39,994 bases of DNA, from IMG/VR virus record IMGVR_UViG_3300028549_000379, positions 1 through 39,994 of that record; one strand, written 5' to 3'. How positions within the stretch are numbered: the first letter of the stretch is position 1; each line of letters opens with the position of its first letter. Positions 14,770 through 38,283 of the stretch are shown here, one piece after another. The position numbers were made by a program, and so were the translations under genes. The notes under the pieces are model-generated. The model was not told the origin of the DNA. It did no database searches and saw only the letters and a program-made list of their open reading frames with translations. Source of the DNA: a virus.

Positions 14770-14781
14770 GTGAACACAAAA
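14770..14781 (+). promoter_or_regulatory. Variant copy of the conserved 13-mer (GTGAACACAAAA)
   Basis: Matches 11 nt of the GTCGAACACAAAA core with one base missing. It lies 32 nt downstream of the -10 at 14732 and upstream of CDS 14907. Confidence 0.5.
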
Positions 14782-14906
14782 TTAAATAAAAAATAAAAAA
14801 GACCCTGGAAAATTCCAAAGTCCAATTTAATCTCGCAAATTAATTGTACCATAAAATTTTCCCTCGGTCAATACTTGGAATGAGAAAAAAGAGGAGAATT
14901 GAAAAA

Positions 14907-15440
14907 ATGGTAGCAAATTACGCAGTAAAAACACTTTCTGAACAGCCTGTTCATGACGTATCATGTCTTGAAAAGATTGATTTATCTTCATGTCATGTAT
15001 CATGTCATGATTCATGTAATGAAGGTATAACTACCTTATCATGTCATGATCATGTCATGTATGACGTGAAGAAAAAACTTCCTATGTCGGATTACAATTA
15101 TTTAGTTAATCAGTTAGAAGCGTGGAGAGTTTTCGCACCTAGAGCCGTTATTAAAAGATATGGGGCTTTAAATGCTTGGGAGGCTATGAACAGGACAAAA
15201 GATTTTAAGGCTAGAATTCCCGGCGCTTACTTTACAAAAGTTATTAGAAGCTTAACCGGAATGAACGGCAAGTTACAAGCGGCTAAAAAAGCGGAACAAG
15301 AATCCGTCTCTTTAATCGACGCATTTAAGGATTATAAAAACGCTATGAAGTATCTAAATTCAATAACCGGGAAAGATTTGGAAGATCCTCAAACCGCTAT
15401 GAATGTTAATAACTTAAAAATTAAATTTAATTTTGCCTAA
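14907..15440 (+). CDS. Hypothetical protein with N-terminal Ser-Cys-His repeats
   Basis: ORF track 14844..15440. The in-frame ATG at 14907 is preceded by aagaggag. The N-terminal SSCHVSCHDSC...LSCHDH segment is encoded by tandem TCATGTCATG repeats. Confidence 0.6.
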   Translation: MVANYAVKTLSEQPVHDVSCLEKIDLSSCHVSCHDSCNEGITTLSCHDHVMYDVKKKLPMSDYNYLVNQLEAWRVFAPRAVIKRYGALNAWEAMNRTKDFKARIPGAYFTKVIRSLTGMNGKLQAAKKAEQESVSLIDAFKDYKNAMKYLNSITGKDLEDPQTAMNVNNLKIKFNFA

Positions 15441-15535
15441 ATAAATTGTAAAAATATTACCCCTTATGGGTTCTGAAATAAGGTCCGCTATTGTATAATG
15501 ATAATGTCGAATACAAAAACGGATCTTATTTTATT

Positions 15536-15775
15536 ATGTTTGATTTTAAAAATTTAAAGCAATATGCGCTTATTATACTGGTGGTTTTCGTCTTTTTATT
15601 ACAGCAAAAACTAATAGTAACGCCGGTGGAACTCGAGCAAAAGCATAGGGAAATTCTCGAGGACGTCGACTCTAAATACGCGACAATCAATCAAGTCAAA
15701 GACGTAAAAACCGACGTCCAAGATATGAAAGATAAAATAGATAAGATCTACGATAAGGTTATTGGAATGAGATAG
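15536..15775 (+). CDS. Holin-like small membrane protein (one TM plus charged helical tail)
   Basis: ORF track 15491..15775 begins at a TTG; the first in-frame ATG is at 15536. TM segment YALIILVVFVFLL. It lies immediately upstream of the endolysin gene. Confidence 0.5.
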   Translation: MFDFKNLKQYALIILVVFVFLLQQKLIVTPVELEQKHREILEDVDSKYATINQVKDVKTDVQDMKDKIDKIYDKVIGMR

Positions 15776-15786
15776 GAGGGGTTGGC

Positions 15787-16320
15787 GTGATTAAGACTCC
15801 CGAACAGATTTTAAAAGAGAAGAAAATAAGCGGCGCAATAAACGCTGATTTTAACTGGGTTGAATTTATAAAACCGGCTGACGGGATCCCGTCATTAGAA
15901 ATTTTACGCAATATAAAAAAAATGGCTGATACCCTTAGTGTTTATAAACACAAGGTTTTTGGCGGTGCCGCGATAACAATTACTAGCGGCGTCCGTAGTT
16001 GGGAACACCATTTAGCGATATACGCCGAGTTAAACGCCCAAAGAGCAAAGGCTAAGCCGAAATTAAAACCTTTGGCAATCCCTAAATTGTCTTGGCATTT
16101 AAAGGGATTGGCGGCGGATTTTACCGTTAAGGGCTTTACTAACAAACAAGTATACGAAAAAATGGATATTCTCCATTTTGGCGGAGTCGAGTTCCCGGAC
16201 GATCAGAATAGAATACATATCGATTTACGTCCGGAAATATGTCGTTTTATTGGTGCTACAGGGCGTGTAGTCGCACATCACTATAATTATTTTCAACACA
16301 ATAAAATTTTTCACGGTTAA
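15787..16320 (+). CDS. Endolysin, peptidase M15 (zinc D-Ala-D-Ala carboxypeptidase-like) family
   Basis: GTG start after an aggagggg SD. Motifs SGVRSWEHH, SWHLKGLAADF (HxxGxAxD) and RIHIDLR match the M15 zinc-ligand pattern. Confidence 0.8.
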   Translation: MIKTPEQILKEKKISGAINADFNWVEFIKPADGIPSLEILRNIKKMADTLSVYKHKVFGGAAITITSGVRSWEHHLAIYAELNAQRAKAKPKLKPLAIPKLSWHLKGLAADFTVKGFTNKQVYEKMDILHFGGVEFPDDQNRIHIDLRPEICRFIGATGRVVAHHYNYFQHNKIFHG

Positions 16321-16339
16321 GAATAGAAGGAGATACATC

Positions 16340-16621
16340 ATGACAGCAGAAGTAAAAGAGGTAGCGGTACAACTAGCAAACGTAGTTATGGCTAATGTCG
16401 CTAACGAGGATTTAACAAACGAAGAAAAAGAACACAAAGTAATTGAATTTTTAGTTACTTTGGATGACGGGTTCCCTGGGGTTGGATTTATCCCTAATTC
16501 ATTAGAAGCCGCGATTGTCGAAGTGGGCGTAGATAAAGTTCAAGCGTATTTCGCTAAATTGGATATGAAATCCTTTATAAAAAAATATTGGACGAGACTT
16601 AAACACCTTTTCAAAAAATAG
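16340..16621 (+). CDS. Hypothetical acidic protein
   Basis: 93-aa ORF with an aaggag SD. Last gene of the short + strand lysis operon. Confidence 0.6.
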   Translation: MTAEVKEVAVQLANVVMANVANEDLTNEEKEHKVIEFLVTLDDGFPGVGFIPNSLEAAIVEVGVDKVQAYFAKLDMKSFIKKYWTRLKHLFKK

Positions 16622-16643
16622 ATCCTAACAACATATAATAAAA

Positions 16644-16669
16644 AAGCGGCCCGTTATCGAGCCGCTTTT
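16644..16669. terminator. Bidirectional terminator between convergent operons
   Basis: aaaaAAGCGGC-ccgttatcga-GCCGCTTttc, with A-tract and T-tract flanks. It overlaps the stop of the - strand resolvase gene. Confidence 0.65.
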
Positions 16670-17566: not shown

Positions 17567-17579
17567 TTTTGTGTTCGAC
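17567..17579 (-). promoter_or_regulatory. Conserved 13-mer GTCGAACACAAAA (exact)
   Basis: Sense on the - strand. It sits between the polymerase stop and the SD/ATG of the next gene, and TAAAAT lies immediately upstream. Confidence 0.6.
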
Positions 17580-20181: not shown

Positions 20182-20194
20182 TTTTGTGTTCGAC
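20182..20194 (-). promoter_or_regulatory. Conserved 13-mer GTCGAACACAAAA (exact)
   Basis: Sense on the - strand, 22 nt upstream of the SSB-like ATG, followed by ACAGAAGAAAAGGAGG. Confidence 0.6.
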
Positions 20195-20221: not shown

Positions 20222-21514
20222 CTATAATCCGATATCGGCGAAATCCGTAATAGATGACGCGATTTGTTTTTCCCTAAAATCCGCGTCCCTCGCAAGGGTT
20301 AAACCTCCTTCGGGTTTATAACAATAACTTTGTACTGTTGCTTTGGCACTTTTCCCCATTTTTTCAATTTGTGCCGGTGTTTTTAGCGTTTTGTTGTAAA
20401 GATCTTCCGCGTCTACCCCTAATTCAAGTTCGAGCATGGTAGCTACGACGCTTTCATCCGTCCATTTTCTGTGAGCCTTACCGCTTCTAACTAGCTTATA
20501 GCCTTCGATATATCCGCCGCTATCAAGCAAACTAAACGCGTGAGCCTTGACGTCGCTTATATAAGTTTCCAAGATCTCCGCGTTATCCAAAAATAATTTT
20601 AATTCTGCCGGCGTTAATTCCATCGGTCTTCTTAAAACGTTTTTAGATACTGGCGCTTGAAAATCCATTTTCGCTACGTTATTTACGGTCGTTCTCATAG
20701 CCGGGCATATCATTTTAGCGTTACAAAATCTACACCATTTGCCGGTACAAGTAGCGGCGTTTTCTTCACGGGTCTTAGCGATTCTTTTCGTTAGTTCCGC
20801 TTTGAACCTTGCTACATATTCCGGAGTTGTCGCCCAACGCCTAACCGGTCCGTCCGCGTGGGACGCTCTAGGTTGAATGATAACTAACTCTATAGTTTTG
20901 AAATTCATAAGGTTTTCGCCGGCCGCGCCAATAGCGTAATAAAGCATTTGCTTATTCTCTACAGGCTCTACCGCGATTCCCTTACCATATTTGTAATCGT
21001 ATACAATTAGTTTTTCCCCTGGTCGTTGGATTGAAGCGTCGTTAGTCCCGCGGGCTTCCGGATCAACGTCGGTAAGTTCGAAGCTTTTTTCGATATTTAC
21101 CCACGGTTGATAAATGCTATCCTGGGTTTTTTTGTCCCAATGCTTCCAACTATCCGAAGTCCCTCTAGACTCTACTTCGATATTCCCGCGGAGAGTACAA
21201 CCGATTTCTAAGGCGTCTTGTAAAATCGTATTTGCGTACAATTCCGCACTTTCCGCCATTTCTTCGGTTACTTTGAATTGGTAATCGTCGGCCTCTACTA
21301 TTTCGCCAACTAAAGAACTAGCCGGCCAAACAGCTTTATAAGCTACTCGGTTTGTCAGAACTTTTTCCGCTACCTCGTGCGCGGCGGTTCCCTCGGCGGC
21401 AAACTTAGAAGTCTCCGCTTTTGGTAGGCGGGCAATAAACGCGTTACTACCCGGACAATTCCACCAACGCTCACATGACGACGCTCCAACGGGGCTATGC
21501 GTCATTTCTGCCAT
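20222..21514 (-). CDS. PD-(D/E)XK nuclease, Cas4-like with Cys cluster (DUF2800-type)
   Basis: An N-terminal Cys pair (CERWWNC) and a C-terminal CTGKWCRFCNAKMIC resemble the Cas4/AddB-type 4-Cys arrangement. Acidic/lysine core around IVYDYKYGKG. Confidence 0.7.
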   Translation of the reverse strand: MAEMTHSPVGASSCERWWNCPGSNAFIARLPKAETSKFAAEGTAAHEVAEKVLTNRVAYKAVWPASSLVGEIVEADDYQFKVTEEMAESAELYANTILQDALEIGCTLRGNIEVESRGTSDSWKHWDKKTQDSIYQPWVNIEKSFELTDVDPEARGTNDASIQRPGEKLIVYDYKYGKGIAVEPVENKQMLYYAIGAAGENLMNFKTIELVIIQPRASHADGPVRRWATTPEYVARFKAELTKRIAKTREENAATCTGKWCRFCNAKMICPAMRTTVNNVAKMDFQAPVSKNVLRRPMELTPAELKLFLDNAEILETYISDVKAHAFSLLDSGGYIEGYKLVRSGKAHRKWTDESVVATMLELELGVDAEDLYNKTLKTPAQIEKMGKSAKATVQSYCYKPEGGLTLARDADFREKQIASSITDFADIGL

Positions 21515-21945
21515 TATTTACCGCCTTTGATTTCGTTAATAATAGCCGCGTAGTCTTTTTCTTGAATATCAGGGATTTTTGCGTATCCGAATTTTTTCAA
21601 GATTTCAACCGCTTTAGCCTTACCTTGGCTGATATCGCCACAAGAGCCTATAAAATGGCTAAATGCCGCTTTAACGTCGTCTATTGTGAGTGCTACCGCT
21701 TCGACTTCCGGAGTTAGATCTAAATCGCCTAACATGTCGTCTTCCTCAATAGCCGGAGTTGCTTCCACTATTTCAGCTTCTACAACTGGCGTAGGTTCCG
21801 GCGTAACTTCTTCTACAGCTTTTTTAGGTGATTTTCTAGTAGAAGTTTTTTTCGGCGTTTCTGCGCCCTGGCTATCTTGTTGCGATAACTCGATGATGGT
21901 TTCCAATGCGACCGCTATACGGTCTAGTGATGATTCGATTGTCAT
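21514..21945 (-). CDS. Possible independently initiated in-frame product (143 aa) nested in the SNF2 ORF
   Basis: Inside the ORF: 13-mer variant (21968-21982), then AAAGGAGAAAACATC, then ATG at 21945 (codon 441). This is the same architecture as at bona fide gene starts. Confidence 0.4.
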   Translation of the reverse strand: MTIESSLDRIAVALETIIELSQQDSQGAETPKKTSTRKSPKKAVEEVTPEPTPVVEAEIVEATPAIEEDDMLGDLDLTPEVEAVALTIDDVKAAFSHFIGSCGDISQGKAKAVEILKKFGYAKIPDIQEKDYAAIINEIKGGK

Positions 21946-23265
21946 GATGTTTTCTCCTTTTCTTTTGTTTTGTGTGTTCGACAATAAACGAGTAATGACT
22001 TTACTCTTACTAATTACGCTTTTTAACATATTATCTTCGAGGGTATCCGGAACGACTAAATAGTGAGCCATAACGGGCTTTGTTTGTCCCATTCTGCGGA
22101 CTCTATCCCTTGCTTGTTCTAAGTTCCCCGGTACCCAGTCAATTTCTGCAAATACTACATGGTTACAAACTTTTTGAAGTCCATCAACGCCGAAGCCCGC
22201 CGCGGTTATTTGGCCGACAAATAAACGGCTATTATAGTCTTTTACAAATAGATCTACTTCAAATTGTTTCATTTTAGCGGTGATTCCACCTAAAACACAT
22301 CTTACGGTATGCCCCGCGAAACGTTTACGAATAGCGTTTATAACGGTTCTGTGATACGCGAAAATTACTATTTTTTGTTCAGTTTGTAATAAATTTTCTA
22401 TATACTCGTAAACTTGATTTAATTTAGCTTCGCCTAATTGGCGTCTTATTGTGGCTTGTATCCCTAATTCACTATCGGGATTGAAGTCGTTAGCCTCTTC
22501 GTGTAGGCGCTCTTCTTCCGCTAGAACGTCCGCGATTTCGTCCGTTGTTTCGAGTAGTACGGTTTTTTCTATAAGCGGAGGAAGTTCCGTTAAAACTTCT
22601 TCTTTAGTTCGTCTAAGCATGAAATCGGAAAGTTTTTCGTTAAGTTCCTCAATATTTGAAGATCCTTTATCTTCCAAAACTCCGTAACTGTTCATGAACG
22701 CGCCGCAATATCTAATAGCGTAAGCCTCGTAGCTTGTATAAGGTTCGATAACCTGGGGCGCCATAACTTTTAACATAACGTAAAAATCTTTAGGTCTGTT
22801 TCTTACCGGCGTCCCTGTTAGCGCGTAAGTATGTTTAGCGTTTCTGATAAGCCCGTCGTTACTTAAAACCTTTTTAGTGCGTTTAGCGTCCATATTTGAT
22901 AGGTTATGCGCTTCGTCCAGGATTAAATAATCATATTGAAGACTCATTAATTGTTTGAATATTTCCGGATAAATTAATAAATCATAGTTGACGATTATAA
23001 TTTCCGCGTCCGATTCTAAAATATCTTTTACTTTAAATAGGATTTGATATTTATAATCTTTTTTGACCCACTCGCTTAACTCTCTAAACCAATTTATTTT
23101 TAAAGAGGATAGCGTCAAAACTAAGACGCGTTTCGGTCTTTTACGATCAATTAGCCCCGCGACTTGAATAGTTTTACCCAGGCCCATATCATCGGCCAAG
23201 AGCGCCGTTTTTCTCGCCGCCATAAAATCTATGCCGACATTCTGAAAATCTCTATATTGTTTCAT
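21514..23265 (-). CDS. SNF2-family helicase (about 440 aa) fused in frame to a 143-aa acidic C-terminal region
   Basis: Motif I DDMGLGKT, motif II DEAH (LILDEAHNL), motif III TGTPVRN, motif VI QARDRVRRMGQ. Confidence 0.85.
   Translation of the reverse strand: MKQYRDFQNVGIDFMAARKTALLADDMGLGKTIQVAGLIDRKRPKRVLVLTLSSLKINWFRELSEWVKKDYKYQILFKVKDILESDAEIIIVNYDLLIYPEIFKQLMSLQYDYLILDEAHNLSNMDAKRTKKVLSNDGLIRNAKHTYALTGTPVRNRPKDFYVMLKVMAPQVIEPYTSYEAYAIRYCGAFMNSYGVLEDKGSSNIEELNEKLSDFMLRRTKEEVLTELPPLIEKTVLLETTDEIADVLAEEERLHEEANDFNPDSELGIQATIRRQLGEAKLNQVYEYIENLLQTEQKIVIFAYHRTVINAIRKRFAGHTVRCVLGGITAKMKQFEVDLFVKDYNSRLFVGQITAAGFGVDGLQKVCNHVVFAEIDWVPGNLEQARDRVRRMGQTKPVMAHYLVVPDTLEDNMLKSVISKSKVITRLLSNTQNKRKGENIMTIESSLDRIAVALETIIELSQQDSQGAETPKKTSTRKSPKKAVEEVTPEPTPVVEAEIVEATPAIEEDDMLGDLDLTPEVEAVALTIDDVKAAFSHFIGSCGDISQGKAKAVEILKKFGYAKIPDIQEKDYAAIINEIKGGK
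21968..21982 (-). promoter_or_regulatory. 13-mer variant GTCGAACACACAAAA (CA insertion), located inside coding sequence
   Basis: Sense on the - strand, 22 nt upstream of the internal ATG at 21945. Confidence 0.5.
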
Positions 23266-25388
23266 TATAGTAGTCCTAACTCTTCCAGGTTAACAGCCAT
23301 TCTCTTATAGCCGTTTGTAGTCTTCCCTTGCTTTTTATGATGGAATTTACCTTTTTCCCATCCTAATTCTTTAACCATAATTTGGGCGACGCGGGTTAAT
23401 TCCCTTTGTGTCGTTCTGCTTATGGATATTCCGATACATTCTTCTAAAATTTCGCGTCCTGTTACCACGGATCTAGGCGAACCAATTTCCGGATCGGTTC
23501 TACATAACCAATCGGCTATAGGCTCAATCCACGGGTCGCGCTGTCTTCTTTTTTCAGTTTCATAATTCGCCATCTTTATCACATCATCCCCTAGGTAAAG
23601 TCTTTCACCTTTAAAGTACCTCGATACGGCTTCCGCCCATAATTGGTCCCGATTTTCTTTTAATCCGGAGAAGTCTACTTTTTTGCAAACTACCGGCCAA
23701 AAACGGCGATTCCCCGTAGTATCTTTTAAATATCCCCCGCCTTCTTCCGGGTTGATTGTTCCAATAAAAACACTTTGTCTCGGATAGTCTTCCGCGTTTC
23801 GGCGGTATGCTAATCTTACGCGATCAGTTGTTTTCGATAAGAAGGATTTTAATTTATCAGTATCAACCTTACGGCTACATACCATTTCGGATACTTCGAT
23901 TATCCAATTTCCCCGCATAGCGTCTATTGTATCTTTGTCGCTGTCCGTAATTCCTATATCGCCGTACCATTTACCGCCTAAAATAGCGATTAACGTACTT
24001 TTTCCGATACCCTGTTCGCCCTCTAATACAAGCATTGAATCAAACTTGACGCCTGGATTAAATACACGCGCTACCGCTCCTGTCAATACTTTACGAGATA
24101 CCGCACGGGTGTATAAGTTATCATCCACGCCCGCGAAATCGTGTAGCCACGTATCTAGTCGCTTTTTACCGTCCCATTCAAGAGATTTTAAATAATCTCT
24201 AACAGGATGGTAGCGGAATTTTTCCGCCGCAATTTGTGCCGCTTCCTGGCATAGTTGGGTAGGAACGTTAAAACATCTTACGCGACTTAACCAATATCTA
24301 AAATTGATCGCGTCGGAATCCGTCCAAGGTCCTAATTTTTTTCCGTTATGCCACGGTGCCGGATTTACAAACATAAGGTCGTTTGTAAACTCGTTATATT
24401 TGAGGATTCCCAAGAATGGGTATTCTTTACAAAGAAGGTAATTAACCGTATTTCTGATAGTCGGTTTTATAGTATTCGTACGATTATCTACGTCCCATTT
24501 TAAATCGTCTTCACTTTCTCCGATTGTCTCTTCTTCAAGCGATAATACTTTCTCGAAATCGCTTTCAGCGGTATTTTTACCGATAATATCTATGTTATAA
24601 GTGTACGCGTTATCAACCTTCTTTTTCAATTCGTTAATATCCCAAACAGGTACACAGCGAGGATTCCAAAACTCTACTAATAATTCAAAAGTTTTTTGAG
24701 CCGATAAAGCGAAATCGCGCCCGCGACATGCAGTTTTGAAAGTTAAGACGTCGCCGCCTTCGCCTTCAATCGCCGGCGGGCAACCTTGCAAAAATTTCAC
24801 ATAACGTAAAACACTTTGTTCGCTATCAGTAAAAGCAAGTTGTGTTTTGCTTAGATCTAGTTCCGCTCTTTTGATTTTTTCTAATAAAGCTACGGGCGCT
24901 TGTTCCGGCTTAAAAGGTTTTTTTAGTAAAGAATAAAGTTTCCCAGTATCCGGGTGAATACTTCCCGCCCCTACTATTTGTTGACCTTTTGTTTTAAATT
25001 CGATTCCTGGATATTCTTTTTCTAAACTTCCGCGCACATCAAAGTTACCCGGCTTTTTAAAATAAATATGAAGACCATCGCCACCGGTACGAACCGTAAA
25101 CGTGCTAAAGTCTGCGCCAATGTCTTTAATGAATTGTGCTAGCACGTTTACGCCCACCGGAAATCTACGCGGATCTACATCAACTATCAAGTCAGTATCG
25201 CGTAAGACTATCCCATAGTTTCCTTTGATTTCATCAGCCGTCATAAACGGATCATATTCAGTTTTTACCCAGTCTTTGACTGCCGGGATTTTGCCGTTTA
25301 AAGGCGTTAGGGTATAACCCGCTTCCACGTAGCCTAAGACTAATTCGCCCTTACTCAAGTCCGGACAAGTTGTCTTCTTCTTTTCCAC
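23265..25388 (-). CDS. Bifunctional primase-polymerase (AEP) / VirE-D5-type P-loop helicase
   Basis: N-terminal prim-pol pattern (KIPAVKDW, LIVDVDPR, GGDGLHIYF). C-terminal Walker A LEGEQGIGKST with D5/VirE-like context. 707 aa. Confidence 0.85.
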   Translation of the reverse strand: MEKKKTTCPDLSKGELVLGYVEAGYTLTPLNGKIPAVKDWVKTEYDPFMTADEIKGNYGIVLRDTDLIVDVDPRRFPVGVNVLAQFIKDIGADFSTFTVRTGGDGLHIYFKKPGNFDVRGSLEKEYPGIEFKTKGQQIVGAGSIHPDTGKLYSLLKKPFKPEQAPVALLEKIKRAELDLSKTQLAFTDSEQSVLRYVKFLQGCPPAIEGEGGDVLTFKTACRGRDFALSAQKTFELLVEFWNPRCVPVWDINELKKKVDNAYTYNIDIIGKNTAESDFEKVLSLEEETIGESEDDLKWDVDNRTNTIKPTIRNTVNYLLCKEYPFLGILKYNEFTNDLMFVNPAPWHNGKKLGPWTDSDAINFRYWLSRVRCFNVPTQLCQEAAQIAAEKFRYHPVRDYLKSLEWDGKKRLDTWLHDFAGVDDNLYTRAVSRKVLTGAVARVFNPGVKFDSMLVLEGEQGIGKSTLIAILGGKWYGDIGITDSDKDTIDAMRGNWIIEVSEMVCSRKVDTDKLKSFLSKTTDRVRLAYRRNAEDYPRQSVFIGTINPEEGGGYLKDTTGNRRFWPVVCKKVDFSGLKENRDQLWAEAVSRYFKGERLYLGDDVIKMANYETEKRRQRDPWIEPIADWLCRTDPEIGSPRSVVTGREILEECIGISISRTTQRELTRVAQIMVKELGWEKGKFHHKKQGKTTNGYKRMAVNLEELGLL

Positions 25389-25596
25389 TTTCTAACCCCG
25401 CTGAAATTTCTACATAGTCATTGTGATGTAACGCTTGTCCTACTTGTGCAGGTTCAAACCACCATTTTTCTGAAAACTTCACCGCGGGTACACGTCCTAA
25501 CCGTGCTAAACGACTCCAACTTTGGCGTGAACCGCCATCGCGCGAAGCCATTTCTTCGGCGCTGTAATGCAACAGGCCGTTAAAAATTCTCGCCAT
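25351..25596 (-). CDS. Excisionase/AlpA-like HTH DNA-binding protein
   Basis: YSAEEMASRDGGSRQSWSRLARLGRVPAVKFSEKWWF matches the HTH_17 excisionase-type pattern. ggagg SD. Overlaps the primase start by 38 nt. Confidence 0.7.
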   Translation of the reverse strand: MARIFNGLLHYSAEEMASRDGGSRQSWSRLARLGRVPAVKFSEKWWFEPAQVGQALHHNDYVEISAGLESGKEEDNLSGLE

Positions 25597-25625: not shown

Positions 25626-25638
25626 TTTTGTGTTCGAC
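25626..25638 (-). promoter_or_regulatory. Conserved 13-mer GTCGAACACAAAA (exact)
   Basis: Sense on the - strand, 26 nt downstream of the -10 of promoter 25665-25692 and 29 nt upstream of the ATG at 25596. Confidence 0.6.
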
Positions 25639-28228: not shown

Positions 28229-28242
28229 TTTCCGTGTTCGAC
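28229..28242 (-). promoter_or_regulatory. 13-mer variant GTCGAACACGGAAA
   Basis: Sense on the - strand. It lies directly after the terminator-like hairpin at 28264-28309 and 18 nt upstream of the ATG at 28210. Confidence 0.5.
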
Positions 28243-28263: not shown

Positions 28264-28309
28264 TATGGATAAAATAAGTCCCGTGGAACTATTAAAAATT
28301 CCGCGGGAC
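28264..28309 (-). terminator. Intrinsic terminator candidate within the early operon
   Basis: On the - strand: GTCCCGCGGAA-tttttaatag-TTCCACGGGAC (11-bp stem with one mismatch), followed by TTATTTTAT. Confidence 0.55.
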
Positions 28310-28514: not shown

Positions 28515-28527
28515 TTTTGTGTTCGAC
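28515..28527 (-). promoter_or_regulatory. Conserved 13-mer GTCGAACACAAAA (exact)
   Basis: Sense on the - strand. It abuts the stop of CDS 28527..28877 and is followed by tandem AACAGTTA units and the SD of the 43-aa ORF. Confidence 0.6.
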
Positions 28528-29879: not shown

Positions 29880-30056
29880 TCACTTTCTTTTTTTGTAATA
29901 CTTAATATTTAATGACTTTGTACGTTTCTTATAGTTTTCTATGCAATATAGGAAAAGGTCGGACAATTCAATATTTTTTATCCCTTCCGGCGTTACAACT
30001 TGAAGCGAGTAATCGCTTACAAGGTTTAAAATATCCTTTTGCTTGATTTGTTCCAT
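29880..30056 (-). CDS. Unlisted 58-aa ORF, first gene of the leftward early operon (tentative)
   Basis: Hand translation: MEQIKQKDILNLVSDYSLQVVTPEGIKNIELSDLFLYCIENYKKRTKSLNIKYYKKRK. The SD is weak. It lies downstream of the - strand promoter at 30101-30129. Confidence 0.35.
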   Translation of the reverse strand: MEQIKQKDILNLVSDYSLQVVTPEGIKNIELSDLFLYCIENYKKRTKSLNIKYYKKRK

Positions 30057-30195: not shown

Positions 30196-30224
30196 TTGAC
30201 ATATAATAAAATATGTGTTATCCT
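30196..30224 (+). promoter_or_regulatory. Sigma70-type rightward promoter for the XRE regulator
   Basis: TTGACA (30196-30201), 17-nt spacer, TATCCT (30219-30224), with a TGT immediately upstream of the -10. Confidence 0.4.
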
Positions 30225-30256: not shown

Positions 30257-30501
30257 TGGCTAAAATTACTAAAGAAATGACGGAATCAATTAAAAATGAT
30301 TTAAAGTCGTACATGGTTAAAAGAGGCTATAACATACAATCGTTAGCCGATTTATTAACTAAAAAGTATGGAAGACCCGAGAGCGCCCAAAACCTCTCAA
30401 ACAAACTAAATCGAGGCGCAATAAAATACGCCGAAGTGTTGGAGATTGCGGAGGTTCTGGGATATAATATCTCTTGGGTTTCTAAAAAAGAAAATGATTA
30501 A
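30257..30501 (+). CDS. XRE/Cro-CI-family HTH transcriptional regulator (81 aa)
   Basis: ORF track 30196..30501. The ATG at 30257 follows a ccaggagg SD. YNIQSLADLL...SNKLNRGAIKYAEVLEIAEVLGY matches the XRE HTH pattern. Confidence 0.7.
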
Positions 30502-30525
30502 TAATTATTAAGTTGTCAAAGTGCT

Positions 30526-30560
30526 AAAAATGCCCGTCTCTCTTAAAAGACGGGCATTTT
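30526..30560. terminator. Bidirectional intrinsic terminator
   Basis: aaaaaTGCCCGTCT-ctcttaaa-AGACGGGCAtttt: 9-bp stem with an A-tract on one side and a T-tract on the other. Confidence 0.8.
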
Positions 30561-30672
30561 GCTACACTAGACAGTTAGGCTATTTCGTTAATTACACTTG
30601 ATTTAAGTTTATTTGCGTTTATAATGTAATTAATACACGAAAGTGGTTTCAGCGTTTGCGCGCTCCAACTGT

Positions 30673-30685
30673 TTTTGTGTTCGAC
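30673..30685 (-). promoter_or_regulatory. Conserved 13-mer GTCGAACACAAAA (exact), orphan copy with no ORF downstream
   Basis: Sense on the - strand. TAAAAT lies 2 nt upstream. No SD/ATG occurs before the terminator at 30526-30560. Confidence 0.55.
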
Positions 30686-30745
30686 AAATTTTAAGCGTTA
30701 GACTATGGCAGAGCCGTATTTTAGCGCTTTTTCTTTTAAGATTTA

Positions 30746-30758
30746 TTTTGTGTTCGAC
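30746..30758 (-). promoter_or_regulatory. Conserved 13-mer GTCGAACACAAAA (exact), orphan copy
   Basis: Sense on the - strand. TAATAT lies immediately upstream. It is 34 nt from the long hairpin at 30792-30850. Confidence 0.55.
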
Positions 30759-30791
30759 ATATTACTAATTGAACTTCCATTATTAAACGAC

Positions 30792-30850
30792 AAAGCGCCC
30801 AATTATTACTTACACCGATTAAAACGGATTTGTAATTATTGGGCGCTTTT
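30792..30850. terminator. Long 18-bp hairpin (one mismatch) with T-tract; insulator or terminator between divergent 13-mers
   Basis: AAAGCGCCCAATTATTAC-22 nt-GTAATTATTGGGCGCTTT, then tattatcttttt. Confidence 0.55.
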
Positions 30851-30937
30851 ATTATCTTTTTGACTCGGATTAGTACCGATTATAGTCTATAGATTACGTC
30901 AAATAACAGCTATTCAATTTGTTATCTCTAAACGATA

Positions 30938-30949
30938 GCGAACACAAAA
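30938..30949 (+). promoter_or_regulatory. 13-mer variant GCGAACACAAAA pointing into the iteron region
   Basis: CGAACACAAAATA is identical to the copies at 17567 and 30746. A TTGACT-N15-TATAGT element lies at 30860-30886 upstream. Confidence 0.45.
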
Positions 30950-31028
30950 TAACTTGTCAAGCGTTTATGAACTTATATTAACTTAAATTAATAATATTAA
31001 ACGAATATAAACGCAATTTGGTACAGTC

Positions 31029-31386
31029 GTAAGGTTTCCGATGTTCTTACCTCCTTACATCGCATTTTAGCGGGAGCGAGGTAAGGCTAAAAACATATAA
31101 ACTTATGTTAAGAGAGGTAAGACTAAAAAGGGTTAAAAAGCCTTACATCTTACATCTGTTTTATAGTAGAGAGGTAAGAAAGATGTAAGACCCCGAAAAC
31201 TAACTATAATCGTATTATATAATATAATCTTACATATCTTACATCTATATAGTATTATTAATATATTATATATAACACTATTTTAAAGCTATTGAGTTTT
31301 ACACGCTTAAAACTTTTACTCTTTTTTGAGGTAAGACAGGTAAGACGTTTTCGACTTAATTATATTTTAGCTTTTTAGATGTAAGA
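31029..31386. repeat. Iteron array: 14 copies of GTAAG[AG]/[CT]CTTAC in both orientations, interleaved with AT-rich tracts
   Basis: Forward copies at 31029, 31081, 31117, 31174, 31185, 31331, 31340 and 31381. Reverse copies at 31045, 31053, 31141, 31148, 31228 and 31237. Extended forms are GAGGTAAGAC and AGATGTAAGA. There is one more reverse copy at 31629. Confidence 0.8.
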
Positions 31387-31818
31387 TTTAATGTTTTTAT
31401 GTTCACATCGGCTCACCGCTTTTTTATTTTCAAGAGCGCCAAAATCCTATTAAAAATCTTTGCCTAATTTTGCTGTGATTTTGTGCAAAGGTCTTTTGAT
31501 ATATTATGTATATCTTTATTTGTGTTATGATTTGATGAAATTGTATGATTTCAAACGTTTAATATTTTCTCGGGCGCTTTAAGCCTGTTAAAATATATCT
31601 TTCTACCTTTTGTTAGTGTCTTTAGCCTTCTTACATAATTATTGTTATAGGTATATTACGCGTCGATATACTAATATCACTACAATGTAGTCATAGCTTG
31701 ACGCGTTGTTATGCCTGTTAATAAAGCTATTGAGCCTATAAAGCGCGCTAATGCTTATTAGTAGGCGTTATAACTATGCAAGAGTGCGCGACACTTGGAA
31801 CTATTAATATGCCATACT

Positions 31819-31895
31819 CGGAGGGGTCCCCCTCTTTTTTGACCCCATAGCGACCCGGGACACCCGGCCGCCCGCCGTCGGGAGGGACCCCTCTA
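31819..31895. other. GC-rich structured island in AT-rich DNA
   Basis: GAGGGGTCCCCCTC+T6 (31821-31840), hairpins CCGGG-aca-CCCGG and CCCG-ccgt-CGGG, then GAGGGACCCCTC (31882-31893), which can pair with the first element. Confidence 0.6.
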
Positions 31896-32061
31896 AAGAT
31901 TCAATATGTCAATATTCAAGAGGTTTAACCGCGATGAAATTCCAAAAATTAAAAATATAAAAAATCTGAAAAACCTTTATTAACGCTAATGAACGCCATT
32001 TAATTATAGTTAATAAATTATTGAGATTAAAATCACAATGGTTTATACTGGTTATGAAATT

Positions 32062-32080
32062 GTCGAACATAGAAACAAAA
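32062..32080 (+). promoter_or_regulatory. Degenerate 13-mer (GTCGAACATAGAAACAAAA) upstream of the packaging/head operon
   Basis: It shares GTCGAACA and CAAAA, separated by an insertion. It lies 86 nt upstream of CDS 32166. Confidence 0.3.
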
Positions 32081-32165
32081 TACGTATTTAGCTTTATTCG
32101 CGGGGTCCCCGTGTAATAAAGCTGTACGCGTATTAACGAAAAAGAATTAACGAAGGAGATTTATC

Positions 32166-32765
32166 ATGACTGAAAAAGGCGTAAAGTACGATTTTGGCGG
32201 GCAGTATTACACGGGCCAAAAACACGGTGAAGAGATTAAAAACTATGAAATTTCTATAGTTTTTCCGGAAGAAACTCCGAAGGCTTTATCACTGTTTAAA
32301 ACCGGTTTGCTTCAACCGCACAATGCTATCTATAAGCTGATGATTGCTAAATACACAGATTTTAGAAAAGCTAGAACGCTCGTTATTACGAACGTTACTA
32401 ACTTGGATAAAAAGGTCGCAGACGATAACGTTAGCAATGTAGCGACTATGAACGTAAAACAGTTGACCGCTTATGTCAAAAAGAACAAAATCGCTCTTGA
32501 TGTAAAAATCTATGAAGGCGATATAACTAGACTTCGCGAAGCAATTATAAAAGCTGAAAAAGACCCGGAAGCATTTAAAGAAATTTATAAAGCTGACCTA
32601 GAGTCTTATAATTTCAATCTTTCTCTAAACACTTTGAACGACGTTCCGGAAGAGGGCGAAGCGGACAAAACTTCTAATGAAGACGTAGACACTACTATTC
32701 TTACCGCTGATGACTTACTCGGCGATTTAGATGGTAGCGACGAGGGCGACGGTGGAGACGAGTAA
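32166..32765 (+). CDS. Hypothetical protein with acidic C-terminal DDLLGDL tail
   Basis: 199-aa ORF with an aaggag SD. First gene of the late operon. The C-terminus is ADDLLGDLDGSDEGDGGDE. Confidence 0.6.
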   Translation: MTEKGVKYDFGGQYYTGQKHGEEIKNYEISIVFPEETPKALSLFKTGLLQPHNAIYKLMIAKYTDFRKARTLVITNVTNLDKKVADDNVSNVATMNVKQLTAYVKKNKIALDVKIYEGDITRLREAIIKAEKDPEAFKEIYKADLESYNFNLSLNTLNDVPEEGEADKTSNEDVDTTILTADDLLGDLDGSDEGDGGDE

Positions 32766-36811: not shown

Positions 36812-37074
36812 TAAATAAAAAAAATCTAATACAAAGAGCGATAAATAGAATCGCAAAGACTAAAGACGGTGAAACTGTTTTCCGTCATATTATGGGCCTA
36901 TGCGGGTATAATCTATCCGACGTAGTTCTTACGTCCACTAATGACGTAAACATACAAGCGACTTTAAACAATACTTATAGACGGACTGTCTATTTGGATT
37001 TAAGGGCTTTAATAGAGCCGGAATATTTAAAGAAAATAGAATTTGAAGAAGAGGAGGAAAATAAAAATGTTTAA
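36808..37074 (+). CDS. Hypothetical small head-module protein
   Basis: 88-aa ORF. Its start overlaps the portal stop (ATGA). Confidence 0.5.
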   Translation: MINKKNLIQRAINRIAKTKDGETVFRHIMGLCGYNLSDVVLTSTNDVNIQATLNNTYRRTVYLDLRALIEPEYLKKIEFEEEEENKNV

Positions 37075-38023
37075 GAAAAAAGGAATGTTAGGAATAGGGC
37101 CGTGTTATCTTTTTGAAGGTGAAGAAGGCGGAAGCGGTGGAGCCGGCGGCGCGGGCGATGATGGCGGAGCCGGAGCCGGAGTAAATGGCGGCGAAGGTAC
37201 AAGCGGCGCGGAAGGCGGCAATTCGTTTAATTTTGACGAGTTTAAAAATACTCACGCTAAAGATTATTTAGATAAACCGTATATGAAAGAAATCGACTCC
37301 CCGGAAAAAATGTTTAAAACAATCGATAACCTTCAATCCCTAATGGGCAAGAAAACCATCGTTCCGGATTCCAATGCTTCTGAAAAGGATTGGAACGATT
37401 ATAGAGAAAGAATCGGGTTAAAAGATTCTAGCGTCTATGAATTCGGCGACTCACATCTTCCGGACAATTTAAAAGGGATTCACCCGGAAGGCTTCGAGAC
37501 TAAAGTTAAAGACCTATTTCACAGTGCGGCCGTAACTCCGGATCAAGCTAAAATTTTACAAGAGGGTTACGATAAATTGATGATTGACGCGCATGGGGAT
37601 CTATTAGCGGAAGCCGTGTCGAAACAACAAAACCAACAAATTTTAAACGCTGATTTTGACGCTCTAGCTGATAAAATGTGGGGCGGAGAAAAAGAAGCTG
37701 TACAAAATACGGCTAAAGCGCTTATTAACGAATTTACGCCTAATGACTTACGTCCGCATTTAGAAAATTTACCTAATGATAATTTGGTTATTATGGCTAG
37801 TGTTTTAAAAGGTATTTCCGATAAATATATCAGTCAAGACGATTTAGCTTCATTAAAAAGTAGCGGTAGTAGTTCCGTTTCGGCTGACGGTCTAAGAACA
37901 CAAGCGCAAGAGGCTATGACGGCTTTAATGAGTATGAACCCTTTTGACAAAGGCTATTCAACTCAACAGGATAAAGTAAATGACCTTTACGCTCAATTAG
38001 GAAAAATTCAAGGGGACAAGTAG
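37067..38023 (+). CDS. Scaffolding protein
   Basis: ORF track 37043..38023. The ATG at 37067 follows a gaggagga SD. Gly-rich acidic N-terminus, then a helical charged body. It lies between the portal and the capsid. Confidence 0.6.
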   Translation: MFKKKGMLGIGPCYLFEGEEGGSGGAGGAGDDGGAGAGVNGGEGTSGAEGGNSFNFDEFKNTHAKDYLDKPYMKEIDSPEKMFKTIDNLQSLMGKKTIVPDSNASEKDWNDYRERIGLKDSSVYEFGDSHLPDNLKGIHPEGFETKVKDLFHSAAVTPDQAKILQEGYDKLMIDAHGDLLAEAVSKQQNQQILNADFDALADKMWGGEKEAVQNTAKALINEFTPNDLRPHLENLPNDNLVIMASVLKGISDKYISQDDLASLKSSGSSSVSADGLRTQAQEAMTALMSMNPFDKGYSTQQDKVNDLYAQLGKIQGDK

Positions 38024-38045
38024 ATAGTTGATCTTTTTCACTTTT

Positions 38046-38074
38046 AATCCGGGGATGTTCTCCGGATTTTTTTT
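38046..38074 (+). terminator. Intrinsic terminator after the scaffold gene
   Basis: AATCCGG-ggatgttct-CCGGATT followed by a T8 run. Confidence 0.8.
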
Positions 38075-38270
38075 AACTCTGATTAACGGCGTTTTACGCT
38101 ATTATACGCCGTTTTAAGAAACTTTGTAAAGTATTGAATTTTTAAATAAAAACGTACATAATGAAAATAACGGGTAGCTTTAATTAGTCCGTTTGATAGT
38201 ATAAATACTCGGAGCATGGCCGGACCCATGTAGGTTACGTCCGTAAATTGACGGGTAGCGTTCACCGAAT

Positions 38271-38283
38271 GTCGAACACAAAA
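38271..38283 (+). promoter_or_regulatory. Conserved 13-mer GTCGAACACAAAA (exact) upstream of the major capsid gene
   Basis: Sense on the + strand, 53 nt upstream of the ATG at 38337. It lies about 200 nt after the terminator at 38046-38074. Confidence 0.6.

Follow-up and report, generated by a model that had tools for sequence, protein, structure and literature searches.

The stretch of DNA analysed here, called the window below, comprises the 39,994 nt of IMG/VR virus record IMGVR_UViG_3300028549_000379 and belongs to an uncultured 40-kb phage whose genome appears complete, judging by its synteny with relatives. Some of its genes are T7-like, among them those for a Gp2.5-type SSB, a tail tube, an internal virion protein and a lysozyme-like amidase. 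The genome carries about a dozen copies of the signal AATT-GTCGAACA-CAAAAA, a single 18-base block whose core part is a 13-mer described in the initial annotation (Table 1).

Table 1. Copies of the 13-mer in the window, with their setting and their counterparts in related phage genomes
Position	Strand	Match	Setting	Orthologous copies
14769..14781	+	degenerate, status uncertain; AGTGAACACAAAA	31 nt past the -10 box of a strong sigma70-type promoter (14708-14737); 125 nt before a 177-aa gene	
15506..15518	+	one mismatch; GTCGAATACAAAA	exactly 6 nt 3' of TATAAT (15494-15499); putative holin gene starts (ATG 15536) 17 nt downstream	6-nt gap to the -10 box recurs in 7 genomes
17567..17579	-	exact	5 nt past the DNA polymerase stop codon; a 143-aa gene starts (ATG 17552) 14 nt downstream	c10163 (position 3148), L142 (position 5037)
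20182..20194	-	exact	gap between exonuclease gene and Gp2.5-like SSB gene; ATG 22 nt downstream	c10163, c117550, c31994, c29966, L142, L153
21970..21982	-	one mismatch; GTCGAACACACAA	within 583-aa SNF2-type helicase ORF, after a small hairpin (~21991-22005); then Shine-Dalgarno and in-frame ATG 21945 (codon 441)	6 other genomes
25626..25638	-	exact	HTH/primase operon leader; 26 nt past conserved sigma70 promoter (TTGACA 25692-25687, 16-nt spacer, GATAAT 25670-25665); 4 nt 3' of small hairpin (25656-25643) and TTTT	promoter, hairpin and motif in 5 relatives
28230..28242	-	two mismatches; GTCGAACACGGAA	~21 nt past intrinsic terminator hairpin 28264-28309, 35 nt from the start of its T-run; ATG of a 98-aa gene 19 nt downstream	
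28515..28527	-	exact	~12 nt after a hairpin; first G ends the TAG stop of a 116-aa ORF upstream; a 43-aa ORF follows after 37 nt	
30673..30685	-	exact	heads a ~150-nt unit without conserved ORF, ending at strong terminator 30527-30560	unit in 5 genomes
30746..30758	-	exact, tandem	36 nt after bidirectional terminator hairpin 30792-30849; 73 nt upstream of 30673..30685	tandem pair in c10163, c31994
30937..30949	+	degenerate, status uncertain; AGCGAACACAAAA	points rightwards into a 1.3-kb non-coding region with iteron-like repeats	
32062..32074	+	two mismatches; GTCGAACATAGAA	12 nt past sigma70-type promoter (32021-32049); then long hairpin (32079-32134), Shine-Dalgarno and first structural-operon gene (32166)	c10163, c117550, c31994, L134, L135, L138
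38271..38283	+	exact	3' end of structured leader; 53 nt 5' of the capsid ATG (38337)	8 relatives

Distribution of the motif in the window

All seven exact copies reported in the initial annotation were recovered, six on the minus and one on the plus strand, as were its five variants; the copy before the putative holin gene had been overlooked. No exact copy is expected by chance, and none was found in 100 dinucleotide shuffles of the window. Allowing at most one or at most two mismatches yields 9 and 14 copies, against 0.1 and 1.5 expected from first-order Markov simulations.

Coding sequence makes up 90.3% of the window, and the 9.7% that is non-coding holds 12 of the 13 copies; the only one within a gene lies in the helicase ORF, 24 nt 5' of an in-frame ATG. 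Each of the 13 copies points in the direction of its neighbouring genes, and eight have a start codon 14-53 nt downstream, both of which agree with the earlier description, the distance ranging from 14 to more than 90 nt across copies. A strong Shine-Dalgarno sequence follows most copies after 2-40 nt, with an A-rich linker. The spacing is very uneven: four copies lie within the 9-kb replication operon, where no internal terminator is predicted, and the 15-kb tail module is nearly free of the motif, so that it cannot be called genome-wide. Orientation switches at ~30.8-30.9 kb, adjoining iteron-like repeats (31040-31400), and the copies point away from the presumed replication origin.

This switch might indicate a DNA signal unrelated to expression, such as a primase or PrimPol start, a site-specific nick site, a replication-protein iteron or a recombination boundary for cassette swaps. 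The last option draws on the early genes bracketed by hairpin-plus-motif modules, which are the most variable genes among relatives, so the repeats could mediate cassette exchange. Exchange of this kind has been proposed for the PeSL elements of T4, in which early promoter and stem-loop repeats similarly surround small, highly variable early genes. PeSL promoters, however, are ordinary sigma70 early promoters, whereas the block repeated here is not sigma70-like and also precedes conserved replication and structural genes. We regard a signal of this type as improbable: priming, nicking or polarity sites would mostly fall within genes and not directly before gene starts, the copies are scattered whereas iterons cluster, the tail module leaves ~15 kb without a copy, and homologous recombination would call for a longer block than 13 bp. 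A shuffling role, if there is one, is more likely a by-product.

Conservation in related phages

The initial annotation had proposed looking for the motif at equivalent positions in related genomes. The core GTCGAACA occupies orthologous positions in at least ten related uncultured phage genomes and is absent from more distant relatives. Shared sites precede the SSB, capsid, holin and first structural genes as well as the primase operon; one follows the DNA polymerase gene, and another lies within the helicase ORF, ahead of an in-frame start. Each relative contains the 8-mer core 6-14 times, where 0.6-1 would be expected, and the flanks of the core diverge. One sub-clade (L138, L139 and L142) carries GTCGAATACTYAAAC at all copies seen. 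A logo built from ~60 copies in relatives consists of one contiguous conserved block from -4 to +14 in which GTCGAA is invariant within the core; upstream of the core, conservation is confined to A-A-T-T at -4 to -1, and the logo contains no conserved -35 or -10 element. Given its retention at equivalent places in related phages, the motif is, as judged from these sequences, a real, orientation-specific gene-start or gene-expression signal. The general frame of the earlier proposal, a promoter or initiator or else a 5'-leader signal, thus stands.

Translational control, also part of that proposal, fares less well. The motif could be a translational enhancer or ribosome standby site, an unstructured C/A-rich segment recruiting the 30S subunit via S1 or rRNA pairing. 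This would suit the Shine-Dalgarno sequences and A-rich linkers past most copies, the internal in-frame start after the copy in the helicase ORF, and the putative holin gene, which has a weak or absent Shine-Dalgarno and a leader beginning with the motif. In some relatives, hairpins between motif and Shine-Dalgarno would moreover hold the two spatially close. The copy at 30685 and its orthologues speak against it. In five genomes a strong bidirectional terminator is followed after 13-38 nt by the motif, ~150-170 nt without a conserved ORF, and a terminator. The recurring unit consists of the motif, a short hairpin (seen by eye), the block CGCTTTTCGTGGTTA..TTACAT and the terminator; read from the sequences, the block falls in three different reading frames across genomes, and it holds no ATG in the window. 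Since a conserved copy heads such a non-coding unit, a purely translational role is unlikely. The variable start-codon distance, the invariant GTCGAA and the variant fixed in one sub-clade are likewise unexpected for a generic A/C-rich enhancer, and most structural genes have a good Shine-Dalgarno but no motif, so that we give this explanation very little chance.

Promoters and hairpins around the motif

Upstream of each operon-start copy, at 0-170 nt, there is a canonical sigma70 promoter that is conserved. Measured between the -10 box and the motif's first G, the gap is 6 nt for the holin gene, 26-28 nt for the primase operon and 2-27 nt for the structural operon; for the capsid copy it is ~108 nt (~150 nt from the promoter start), and copy 30758 lies ~170 nt downstream of its promoter. 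Overall, sigma70 elements were not found at any fixed distance from the motif. The TAAAAT, TAATAT and TTAAAT boxes that the initial annotation reported at four copies are present but were rejected as a conserved -10, as the key adenine position varies over the ~60 copies. Its reading of the motif as initially transcribed sequence holds for the holin promoter and not elsewhere. In seven genomes the 6-nt gap past this TATAAT/CATAAT/AATAAT box is constant while the spacer letters have diverged. The holin call itself is based on the hydrophobic translation and the neighbouring endolysin gene, with no family match behind the name.

Hairpins are enriched 4-14 nt upstream of the motif (median folding energy -7.8 versus -5.5 kcal/mol, p = 1.5e-4). 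Most have no U-run, and some swap letters but hold their pairing. The terminator-type hairpins noted earlier at 28264-28309, 30792-30849 and 38049-38074 do exist, but canonical terminators show no enrichment just 5' of the motif (8 of 62 copies versus 10% of control positions). At the primase operon the stem letters vary between genomes with pairing retained, as read from the sequences. The hairpin in the helicase ORF is kept in five of six genomes (c10163, c29966, c136490, L142 and L153); by eye, with no covariation test, its stems GGTAA/TTACC, GGGTAA/TTACCC and GGGCAA/TTGCCC include one compensatory change, and c117550 has an unrelated stem, TCTCA/TGAGA, in its place. A recurrent module in c10163 and L138 combines TTAAGACGAAAC, a G+C-rich hairpin, CC(A/G)GAT and GTCGAAYA. 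In the capsid leader, a sigma70 promoter (38134-38139/38157-38162) is followed by the hairpins H1 (38170-38192), H2 (38195-38210) and H3 (38233-38266). Compensatory changes occur at 10 of 28 predicted pairs, and the leader RNA is older than the motif in the wider phage family. The enriched hairpins, some of them conserved in pairing and one lying within an ORF, together with the lack of terminator enrichment, point to an RNA-level function of the module.

In this context, the motif may be a transcribed leader element, made from upstream sigma70 promoters or by operon read-through and acting on the RNA or, within the elongation complex, on the non-template strand; we rate this somewhat less likely than the promoter discussed below, but a close rival to it. 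A specific factor might cleave or mature the transcript, giving mRNAs that start at or near GUCGAACAC, with the upstream hairpin shielding the new 3' end, comparable to the RNase III sites between T7 early genes. Alternatively, a factor might modify RNA polymerase to pass internal hairpins or terminators, as at lambda nut, HK022 put and ops. Besides the conserved promoters and hairpins, two observations fit: RNA from the holin promoter would have the motif's first G as its 5' end, and AAAUU, immediately 5' of the core, suits the RNase E preference RN|WUU. The first immediate-early gene has a canonical TTGACA-17-TAAAAT/TAGAAT-type promoter without the motif and encodes a small, basic, conserved protein, a further point for the leader reading. 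A motif copy comes after its stop codon in c10163, c136490 and c31994, and in the window the next copy (28527) lies ~1.4 kb downstream. Such a site downstream of the first early gene is reminiscent of nutR, and so is the nut-then-terminator arrangement in c10163 and c31994, where motif, terminator-like hairpin and first structural gene succeed one another.

The resemblance to T7 RNase III sites, nut, put and ops extends to repeated, oriented elements transcribed between genes or in leaders and associated with hairpins. The conserved part here, in contrast, is a linear 13-18-mer with no hairpin, boxB-like stem or put-like double stem; no boxB-type hairpin 3' of the motif is conserved, Rfam contains no matching family, and the motif matches neither boxA nor ops (GGCGGTAGnnTG). 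An invariant linear RNA site of this length is unusual among known bacterial and phage RNA-binding proteins, and there are a dozen copies per genome instead of one or two. No sequence-specific RNase, N-like protein or NusG paralogue was detected among the phage proteins. Cleavage at such a site would leave no full-length helicase mRNA and would strip the stop codon from the ORF ending at 28527, and the four copies in the replication operon have no predicted terminator to overcome. Finally, the best-conserved tandem copies lie directly past a strong bidirectional terminator, where little upstream transcription should arrive.

A candidate phage-specific promoter

We tentatively favour, at a little under even chances, a single-block, phage-specific promoter with a T7-like distribution, used by a host RNA polymerase that a putative phage factor redirects. 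The motif would mark where phage transcripts begin. The hypothetical factor could be a small sigma-like or sigma-appropriating protein, and initiation would occur inside or just past the A-rich 3' part of the block. Its copies would resemble T7 promoters in acting as internal promoters that boost the SSB, replication, lysis and capsid genes; the tandem pair would represent promoters adjoining the presumed origin, and the copy within the helicase ORF a promoter for a shorter in-frame product. Three elements of this picture are inferred: the action of the motif at the DNA level in initiation, its recognition by a phage factor, and the position of the transcription start.

Several observations favour this promoter: the excess of exact copies, their non-coding and co-oriented placement, and a core kept at orthologous gene starts while its flanks diverge. 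The single contiguous block agrees with known phage-specific promoters; T7-type, T4 late and yeast mitochondrial promoters are single blocks too. The GTCGAATACTYAAAC pattern of one sub-clade fits a trans-acting reader with its own specificity. The arrangement of terminator, motif, unit and terminator in five genomes is self-contained, and at 28242 terminator, motif and gene succeed one another with no sigma70 promoter between; the same order was read from the sequence at position 1725 of c10163, where a stricter scan did not flag it. Similarly, the first early gene has a motif-free sigma70 promoter and the motif comes further downstream, as would suit a factor produced ahead of the units on which it acts.

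The reader itself is hypothetical, since searches of PHROGs, Pfam and PDB sequences found no RNA polymerase, sigma factor or known appropriator, in line with the initial annotation, and neither did a fold search of the conserved 177-aa protein. This weighs against the promoter, as does the lack of conservation of the small early proteins among relatives, which leaves few candidate factors. Moreover, with sigma70 promoters preceding the operon-start copies the motif could simply be transcribed leader, and the capsid copy sits in a covariation-supported leader RNA that is older than the motif.

Promoters read by redirected host polymerase offer one comparison, namely T4 late promoters (TATAAATA; gp55 with gp33 and the sliding clamp), T4 MotA/AsiA middle promoters and those of SPO1 gp28 and gp33/34. 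They share a short phage-specific element, redirection by small phage proteins (here proposed) and a common occurrence in tandem with sigma70 promoters; T4 late promoters also have no -35 and a nearly invariant 8-bp core, comparable to GTCGAACA. In contrast, homologues of gp55, gp33, MotA, AsiA and gp28 were not detected among the phage proteins, the core here contains G/C and is not -10-like, and the motif serves early-type, replication, lysis and capsid genes alike instead of one temporal class.

T7-type promoters (Autographiviridae) are read by a single-subunit RNA polymerase, whereas this apparently complete genome encodes none; the motif bears no relation to the T7, T3 or SP6 consensus, the genes are arranged in two divergent arms, and canonical sigma70 promoters head every operon. 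The layout is nevertheless similar to the T7 promoter map, and the replication, tail and internal-virion genes of this phage are T7-like too; this resemblance also favours the promoter reading. T7-type promoters are single ~18-23 bp blocks with an A/T-rich part, present in 10-17 co-oriented copies per 40-kb genome, intergenic or at gene ends. They precede the SSB and capsid genes, with one in the helicase-primase region, a tandem pair near the origin, and hairpin processing sites nearby.

Distribution of the motif in the window and among relatives

The window is essentially a complete genome of an uncultured podovirus (39,994 bp, 40.2% G+C), with ends that are contiguous by synteny with relatives and with no tRNA genes found; its modules are listed in the table together with the other features discussed below. 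No close deposited phage relatives were found at the DNA level, and by protein the nearest deposited phages are a podovirus of the Manatee Spring virome, whose capsid is 55% identical, and pelagiphages of the HTVC010P type, at about 30%. Two contigs that matched within metagenome-assembled genomes (labels Bacteroidales and Elusimicrobia) have the size of a phage, and no host is assigned from them; strong Shine-Dalgarno sequences and canonical TTGACA/TATAAT promoters argue against a Bacteroidota host.

Coordinates of features in the window and what distinguishes them
Feature	Coordinates	Strand	Remarks
Structural module	32166 through window end, on to 13942	+	terminase, portal, scaffold, capsid, T7-like tail tube proteins, internal virion proteins (one of 1653 aa), tail fibre
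222-aa gene	13973-14641	-	N-terminus MerR-type-HTH-like by eye, no family match
177-aa protein gene	14907-15440	+	clade-restricted; Ser-Cys-His repeats at N-terminus (SCHxxxxLTSCHSHGxSCHDQ...)
Lysis module	about 15536-16621	+	
Early and replication module	30056 down to 16654	-	HTH protein, PrimPol/VapE-type primase-helicase, SNF2-type helicase, PD-(D/E)XK exonuclease, Gp2.5-like SSB, family A DNA polymerase, Holliday-junction resolvase
Helicase ORF, SNF2-type	21514-23265	-	internal ATG 21945; linker, then in-frame 143-aa acidic C-terminal domain
First early gene, 54-58 aa product	29883-30056	-	basic tail (..KYYKKRK); also c10163, c31994, c117550, c136490
Early operon promoter	30129-30101	-	TTGACT-17-TAAACT; in relatives TTGACA-17-TAAAAT or TAGAAT
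Cro-like gene promoter, divergent	30196-30224	+	
Cro/CI-like HTH gene, 81 aa	30256-30501	+	opposes early operon from back-to-back sigma70 promoters; ends at bidirectional terminator 30527-30560
Long bidirectional terminator hairpin	30792-30849 and orthologous sites		aatCGGtnntaatCCG at apex or in neighbouring small hairpin
Candidate replication origin or genome terminus	30860-32166 (1.3 kb)		no ORFs, between divergent gene arms; iteron-like direct and inverted repeats
Capsid promoter and leader of about 100 nt	38134-38266	+	hairpins including H1 and H3; also L133, L131, L132, L129, L134, L135, L138, L156-L159

The seven exact copies of the 13-mer GTCGAACACAAAA reported in the initial annotation were all recovered, against none in shuffled sequences. 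Nine copies are present at up to one mismatch (0.1 expected) and 14 at up to two (1.5 expected); one copy that had been overlooked, GTCGAATACAAAA at 15506-15518, precedes the putative holin gene. Twelve of 13 copies lie in non-coding DNA although the window is 90.3% coding. The thirteenth is located within the helicase ORF, 24 nt 5' of a Shine-Dalgarno sequence and an in-frame ATG (codon 441). As had been claimed, every copy (13/13) is oriented with its adjacent genes, and eight of the 13 precede a start codon by 14-53 nt. With its own Shine-Dalgarno sequence and ATG, the helicase C-terminal domain would likely be made as a second product, comparable to T7 gene 4A/4B, and the fused ORF is kept in the relatives c10163, c136490 and c29966.

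Searches with the primase and portal proteins, DNA patterns and exact protein look-up yielded relatives, whole or fragmentary and at least 10 in number, in IMG/VR, in public assemblies and in two metagenome bins of rumen or gut origin; their primase and capsid identities to the window are 65-75%. Each partly reconstructed relative genome has 6-14 copies of the 8-mer core GTCGAACA, where 0.6-1 are expected. The initial annotation had made its proposal depend on conservation at equivalent positions in related genomes, and copies are indeed found at orthologous places between diverged flanks: before the HTH/primase operon, before the SSB gene, after the DNA polymerase gene, in the helicase ORF upstream of ATGACAATCGAA, and before the holin gene, the first structural gene, the capsid gene and many small early genes. 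In a logo of 59 exact-core copies these form one block, A57 A57 T61 T79 / GTCGAACA / C74 A89 A67 A76 A81 A71 (percentages), that spans -4 to +14, with no conserved position upstream of -4.

A sub-clade (L138, L139, L142, and two copies seen in L145) carries GTCGAATACT(Y)AAAC at most copies, with T at position 7 in all copies seen; L005 has this variant at its single copy, and position 7 is mixed C/T in L153 and the window. The motif is absent from the more distant relatives L008 and L009 (43-46% primase identity) and MW202485, as well as from L155-L159 (59-66% capsid identity, 32-57% G+C). From its orthologous conservation, its variants and its absence in distant kin we therefore conclude that it is a clade-specific, selected signal recognized by a reader of high sequence specificity. 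No comparable repeated motif was found in L008, L009 or L157-L159, so there is no evidence of a family-wide set of alternative motifs. The repeated 11-mers of MW202485, considered as an analogue, proved to be a 24-bp tandem repeat within a gene. The literature returned only unrelated primer matches to the motif sequence.

Early-gene spacers also contain a recurrent cassette (c10163 13291, 14215 and 14801; L138 714) that consists of TTAAGACGAAAC, a G+C-rich hairpin, CC(A/G)GAT, GTCGAAYA and an A-rich sequence ending in GTGAGG. It is common to both motif sub-clades, the genes between cassettes differ, and the pattern resembles mobile promoter/stem-loop cassettes.

Promoters, leaders and terminators around the motif

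In sigma70-type promoters, hexamers resembling TTGACA (-35) and TATAAT (-10) are separated by 16-18 bp and keep a fixed distance to the transcription start. The motif does not conform to this layout: the mean -10 score is below zero at all offsets from 0 to 19, fewer than half of the copies have a good -10 box (offsets 0-2, 6, 12-28 and more), and within operons most copies lack a -10-like box in any constant position. Every operon is headed by a canonical sigma70-type promoter of its own, kept among relatives, and the leaders of the early operon and of the Cro-like gene lack the motif. The primase operon starts with TTGACA-16-GATAAT; the motif lies 26-28 nt from this promoter, beyond a small hairpin whose stem sequence varies between genomes. 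At the holin gene TATAAT, CATAAT or AATAAT lies exactly 6 nt 5' of the motif's first G in seven genomes, with a diverged spacer sequence, and in the structural operon the gap from promoter to motif is 2-27 nt.

At the capsid gene the promoter (TTGAAT or TTGACG, 17-nt spacer, AATAAT) is about 150 nt upstream of the motif and is followed by three hairpins. Compensatory changes occur at 10 of 28 predicted pairs of this leader, and a CGG-GUA-GC bulge motif is found in both H1 and H3, in mirrored arms. By eye, the promoter and H1/H3-like elements are also present in distant relatives without the 13-mer (32-57% G+C), so in this clade the motif was inserted downstream of the last hairpin, ahead of the Shine-Dalgarno sequence. 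The leader may represent a cis-regulatory RNA common to the whole family, perhaps one that is put-like or autoregulatory. Short public capsid-gene contigs were considered as a source of RNA 5' ends and set aside, as their ends look arbitrary; one of them, L154, begins 19 nt before the motif.

More generally, the 48 nt upstream of the motif fold to a median of -7.8 kcal/mol versus -5.5 at random positions (p = 1.5e-4, the copies being non-independent), and reach -8 kcal/mol or lower at 50% of copies versus 25% of controls. Several of these hairpins, one within the helicase ORF, keep their pairing by compensatory changes as read from the sequences. No enrichment is seen for hairpins followed by a U-run in the 45 nt upstream, which occur at 8 of 62 copies versus 10% of controls.

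These arrangements bear on the possibility that the motif is a transcribed leader element for processing, 5'-end definition or antitermination, the main rival reading, to which we give clearly less than an even chance. It accords with the sigma70 promoters upstream of every operon-start copy, the 6-nt geometry at the holin promoter, the enrichment of U-run-less hairpins upstream and the embedding of one copy in the capsid leader RNA; cutting, however, would damage the helicase mRNA and remove a stop codon at 28527 (minus-strand copies are named here by their first base), several copies lie in an operon without terminators, and the best copies are behind a strong terminator. We also know of no RNase or antiterminator with such a long linear site, which counts against this reading.

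The order terminator, motif, downstream unit recurs at 30758 and 28242 in the window, at 16961 and 16871 in c10163 and at 32869 in c136490, and by eye at 29387 in the latter. Copy 30685 heads a non-coding unit: in five genomes this copy or its orthologue is followed by a short hairpin, a conserved block CGCTTTTCGTGGTTA..TTACAT that falls in three different reading frames, and a strong intrinsic terminator, the span from motif to terminator being about 150 nt in the window and about 170 nt in relatives. A strong bidirectional terminator lies 13-38 nt upstream of the unit, and this terminator is itself preceded by another unit, about 130-170 nt long, with its sigma70 promoter. Given this terminator-flanked order, the motif sits in the promoter slot of a second small transcription unit. 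A consensus fold of the non-coding unit gave no pairs, the alignment being too poor. That the motif is a translational enhancer fits poorly and is highly improbable: eight copies lie close before a start codon, but a purely translational role cannot explain the copy at 30685.

The upstream terminator is of interest in its own right. aatCGGtnntaatCCG is conserved in 5/5 genomes examined, with two copies in c117550, and the terminator follows a sigma70 promoter (e.g. TTGACA-17-TAGAAT in c136490). Either a small RNA, about 130-170 nt in length, or a site of protein binding is suggested by this arrangement. The neighbouring Cro-like gene is conserved in four relatives, and its arrangement against the early operon resembles a lambda-like switch, here in a phage without integrase. 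Another leader of unusual build belongs to the 222-aa gene, where a sigma70-type promoter (14871-14843, minus strand) is followed at once by a terminator-like hairpin (14823-14800); the order promoter, terminator, gene hints at regulated read-through.

Known systems and the search for a reader

T7-type promoters are single blocks of about 18-23 bp that span the start site and are read by a cognate phage-encoded single-subunit RNA polymerase. The motif shares their single-block layout, with a block from -4 to +14 and co-oriented copies numbering 11-13 in the window and 6-14 per relative (about 10-17 per genome for T7-type promoters). The cognate polymerase that such promoters require is not detectable in this phage. 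T4 late-type promoters (gp55 class) have a short near-invariant element without -35, used with a gp55-like sigma factor and a gp33-like co-activator. The invariant 8-mer and the lack of a -35 in the motif are compatible with this architecture; PHROGs and Pfam scans revealed no gp55- or gp33-like proteins, although small divergent factors could escape such scans.

RNA-based systems were compared as well. In lambda nut sites a linear boxA precedes a boxB hairpin in the nascent RNA, bound by an arginine-rich N-type protein, whereas here +15 to +37 is unconserved, no conserved hairpin follows the motif, and the hairpins lie upstream at variable distance; the first early protein (57 aa) has a basic C-terminus and no established homology to any known protein. 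The ops site of RfaH, the 12-nt GGCGGTAGnnTG in a leader, is read on the non-template strand at a pause, and its sequence is unrelated to the motif. GGTAGCG in the capsid leader (38252-38260), part of the H3 stem with covariation support, is shared with E. coli ops probably by coincidence. T7 R sites are extended imperfect double-stranded hairpins of about 20 bp that contain the RNase III cleavage site. Stable folding is enriched upstream of the motif, as given above, with stems mostly of 5-7 bp; the copies that precede the SSB and holin genes and the one that follows the polymerase gene have no stem. Rfam 15 covariance models gave no match at gathering score in the whole window, and when 30400-32200 and 38000-38350 were scanned by E-value all matches stayed below threshold, the best being to the terminator hairpin 30527-30560. 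The motif is thus outside these tested families: sigma70 and T7-type RNA polymerase promoters, nut, ops and Rfam. In its mode of working it would come closest to phage-specific promoters such as those of T7 or the late ones of T4, but without a known reader. We take several resemblances to carry no weight, namely those to the sigma28 -10 box GCCGATAA, the ECF -10 box GTC, 16S rRNA 1494-1505, 5S rRNA loop C (CCGAACACGGAAG), the tRNA T-loop complement (GTTCGA), the P4 iteron TGTTCACC and the Bacteroides -7 box TAnnTTTG; for the last of these, T at -3 is found in only 23% of copies.

That no phage RNA polymerase or sigma factor is visible, as first noticed from the sequence, was borne out by PHROGs and Pfam scans of the ORFs. 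All ORFs of at least 500 aa are assigned (tail, internal virion, polymerase, helicase, primase, terminase, portal), the 1653-aa protein lacks a DxDGD-type catalytic motif, and the sole long gene-free stretch is 30860-32166. Among all small ORFs the same databases gave no sigma-like or polymerase-binding proteins, the sole leads of the sigma hunt being weak HTH_17/excisionase-type matches of an 81-aa protein (gene at 25351-25596). Antitermination of the AlpA/Q type was considered for this protein. Pseudomonas AlpA is larger, reads a 6-bp element between -35 and -10, and needs a -10-like pause site (PMC9371919). Size, element position and pause requirement are all unmatched here, and the model was therefore dropped.

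Conserved candidates for the reader are the first early protein, the HTH_17-like protein, the Cro-like protein and the 177- and 222-aa proteins, none of them tied to the motif. The first early protein is the only early small protein conserved clade-wide, the others not being kept among relatives; its gene is frameshifted in c136490, and a word-based database search returned only itself. Among loci covering the primase region, the HTH_17-like protein (72-81 aa) is found only in motif-bearing ones. PDB sequence searches with the 177-, 222- and 199-aa proteins gave no match. The 177-aa protein, without match in Pfam or PHROGs, has an AlphaFold model (mean pLDDT 70) with a disordered Cys/His-rich N-terminus, whose Ser-Cys-His repeats probably bind metal, and a confident helical C-terminal domain with an invariant PGAYFT; Foldseek found no match to this model in the PDB. 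Unrelated phages have a 127-aa version by itself in between gene modules, and L152 has homologues of both the 177- and the 222-aa protein, yet its holin promoter region lacks the motif.

Taken together, we tentatively favour a phage-specific promoter, at slightly under an even chance, because of the single high-information block of about 18 bp, the strict co-orientation and the placement at gene ends. The self-contained unit at 30685, the variant sub-clade and the motif-free first early gene add to this case, whose weakness is that no reader is identifiable. The distribution also resembles that of T7 promoters: copies precede the SSB and capsid genes, one is located within the helicase gene, and a tandem pair flanks the presumed, iteron-rich origin. 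A role in DNA unrelated to expression fits poorly and is very improbable. One specific form of promoter would be a T7-style regulon in a clade that has T7-like replication and tail genes without RNA polymerase, in which a dozen 18-bp promoters without -35/-10 are served by the host polymerase and a new, tiny specificity factor, unrelated to known sigma factors and appropriators, that co-evolves with the motif (GTCGAACAC-AAAA versus GTCGAATAC-TYAAAC). We consider this scenario unlikely as a whole; the 57-aa first early protein or the HTH_17-like protein could provide such a factor.

Significance and further features of the genome

T7-supergroup phages without RNA polymerase (HTVC010P-, SIO1- and VpV262-type) are abundant in oceans, guts and rumens, and how they time and boost expression with the host enzyme only is, to our knowledge, largely unknown. 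The motif matters because phages that combine T7-like replication and tail genes with the lack of an RNA polymerase are common, and little is known of how they programme transcription. In this clade the question becomes accessible through a sharply defined motif that is rich in information, easy to mutate and present at each key gene, through the natural variation in specificity of a sister sub-clade, and through the small number of conserved small proteins that might be the reader. A promoter would represent a new route of retargeting bacterial RNA polymerase and possibly a compact orthogonal promoter-and-factor pair, an RNA signal an unusually sequence-specific processing or antitermination system. 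Either way, the motif can serve as an annotation marker for transcription units in these uncultured phages.

Two further regions deserve mention. The candidate origin or terminus contains, at 31040-31400, TAAGAGAGGTAAGAC three times and ATCTTACATCT three times or more, along with a plus-strand terminator (31820-31835) and a G+C-rich patch (31840-31900). The tail fibre (gene 10660-12324) is targeted at its C-terminus by a complete diversity-generating retroelement with VR at 12189-12309, TR at 12356-12476 and a reverse transcriptase at 12620-13942 (phrog_1423 match, E = 4e-114). The called ORF 12339-12623 is mostly template repeat. VR and TR, of 121 nt each, are 84% identical, and all mismatches fall at adenines of the template copy.
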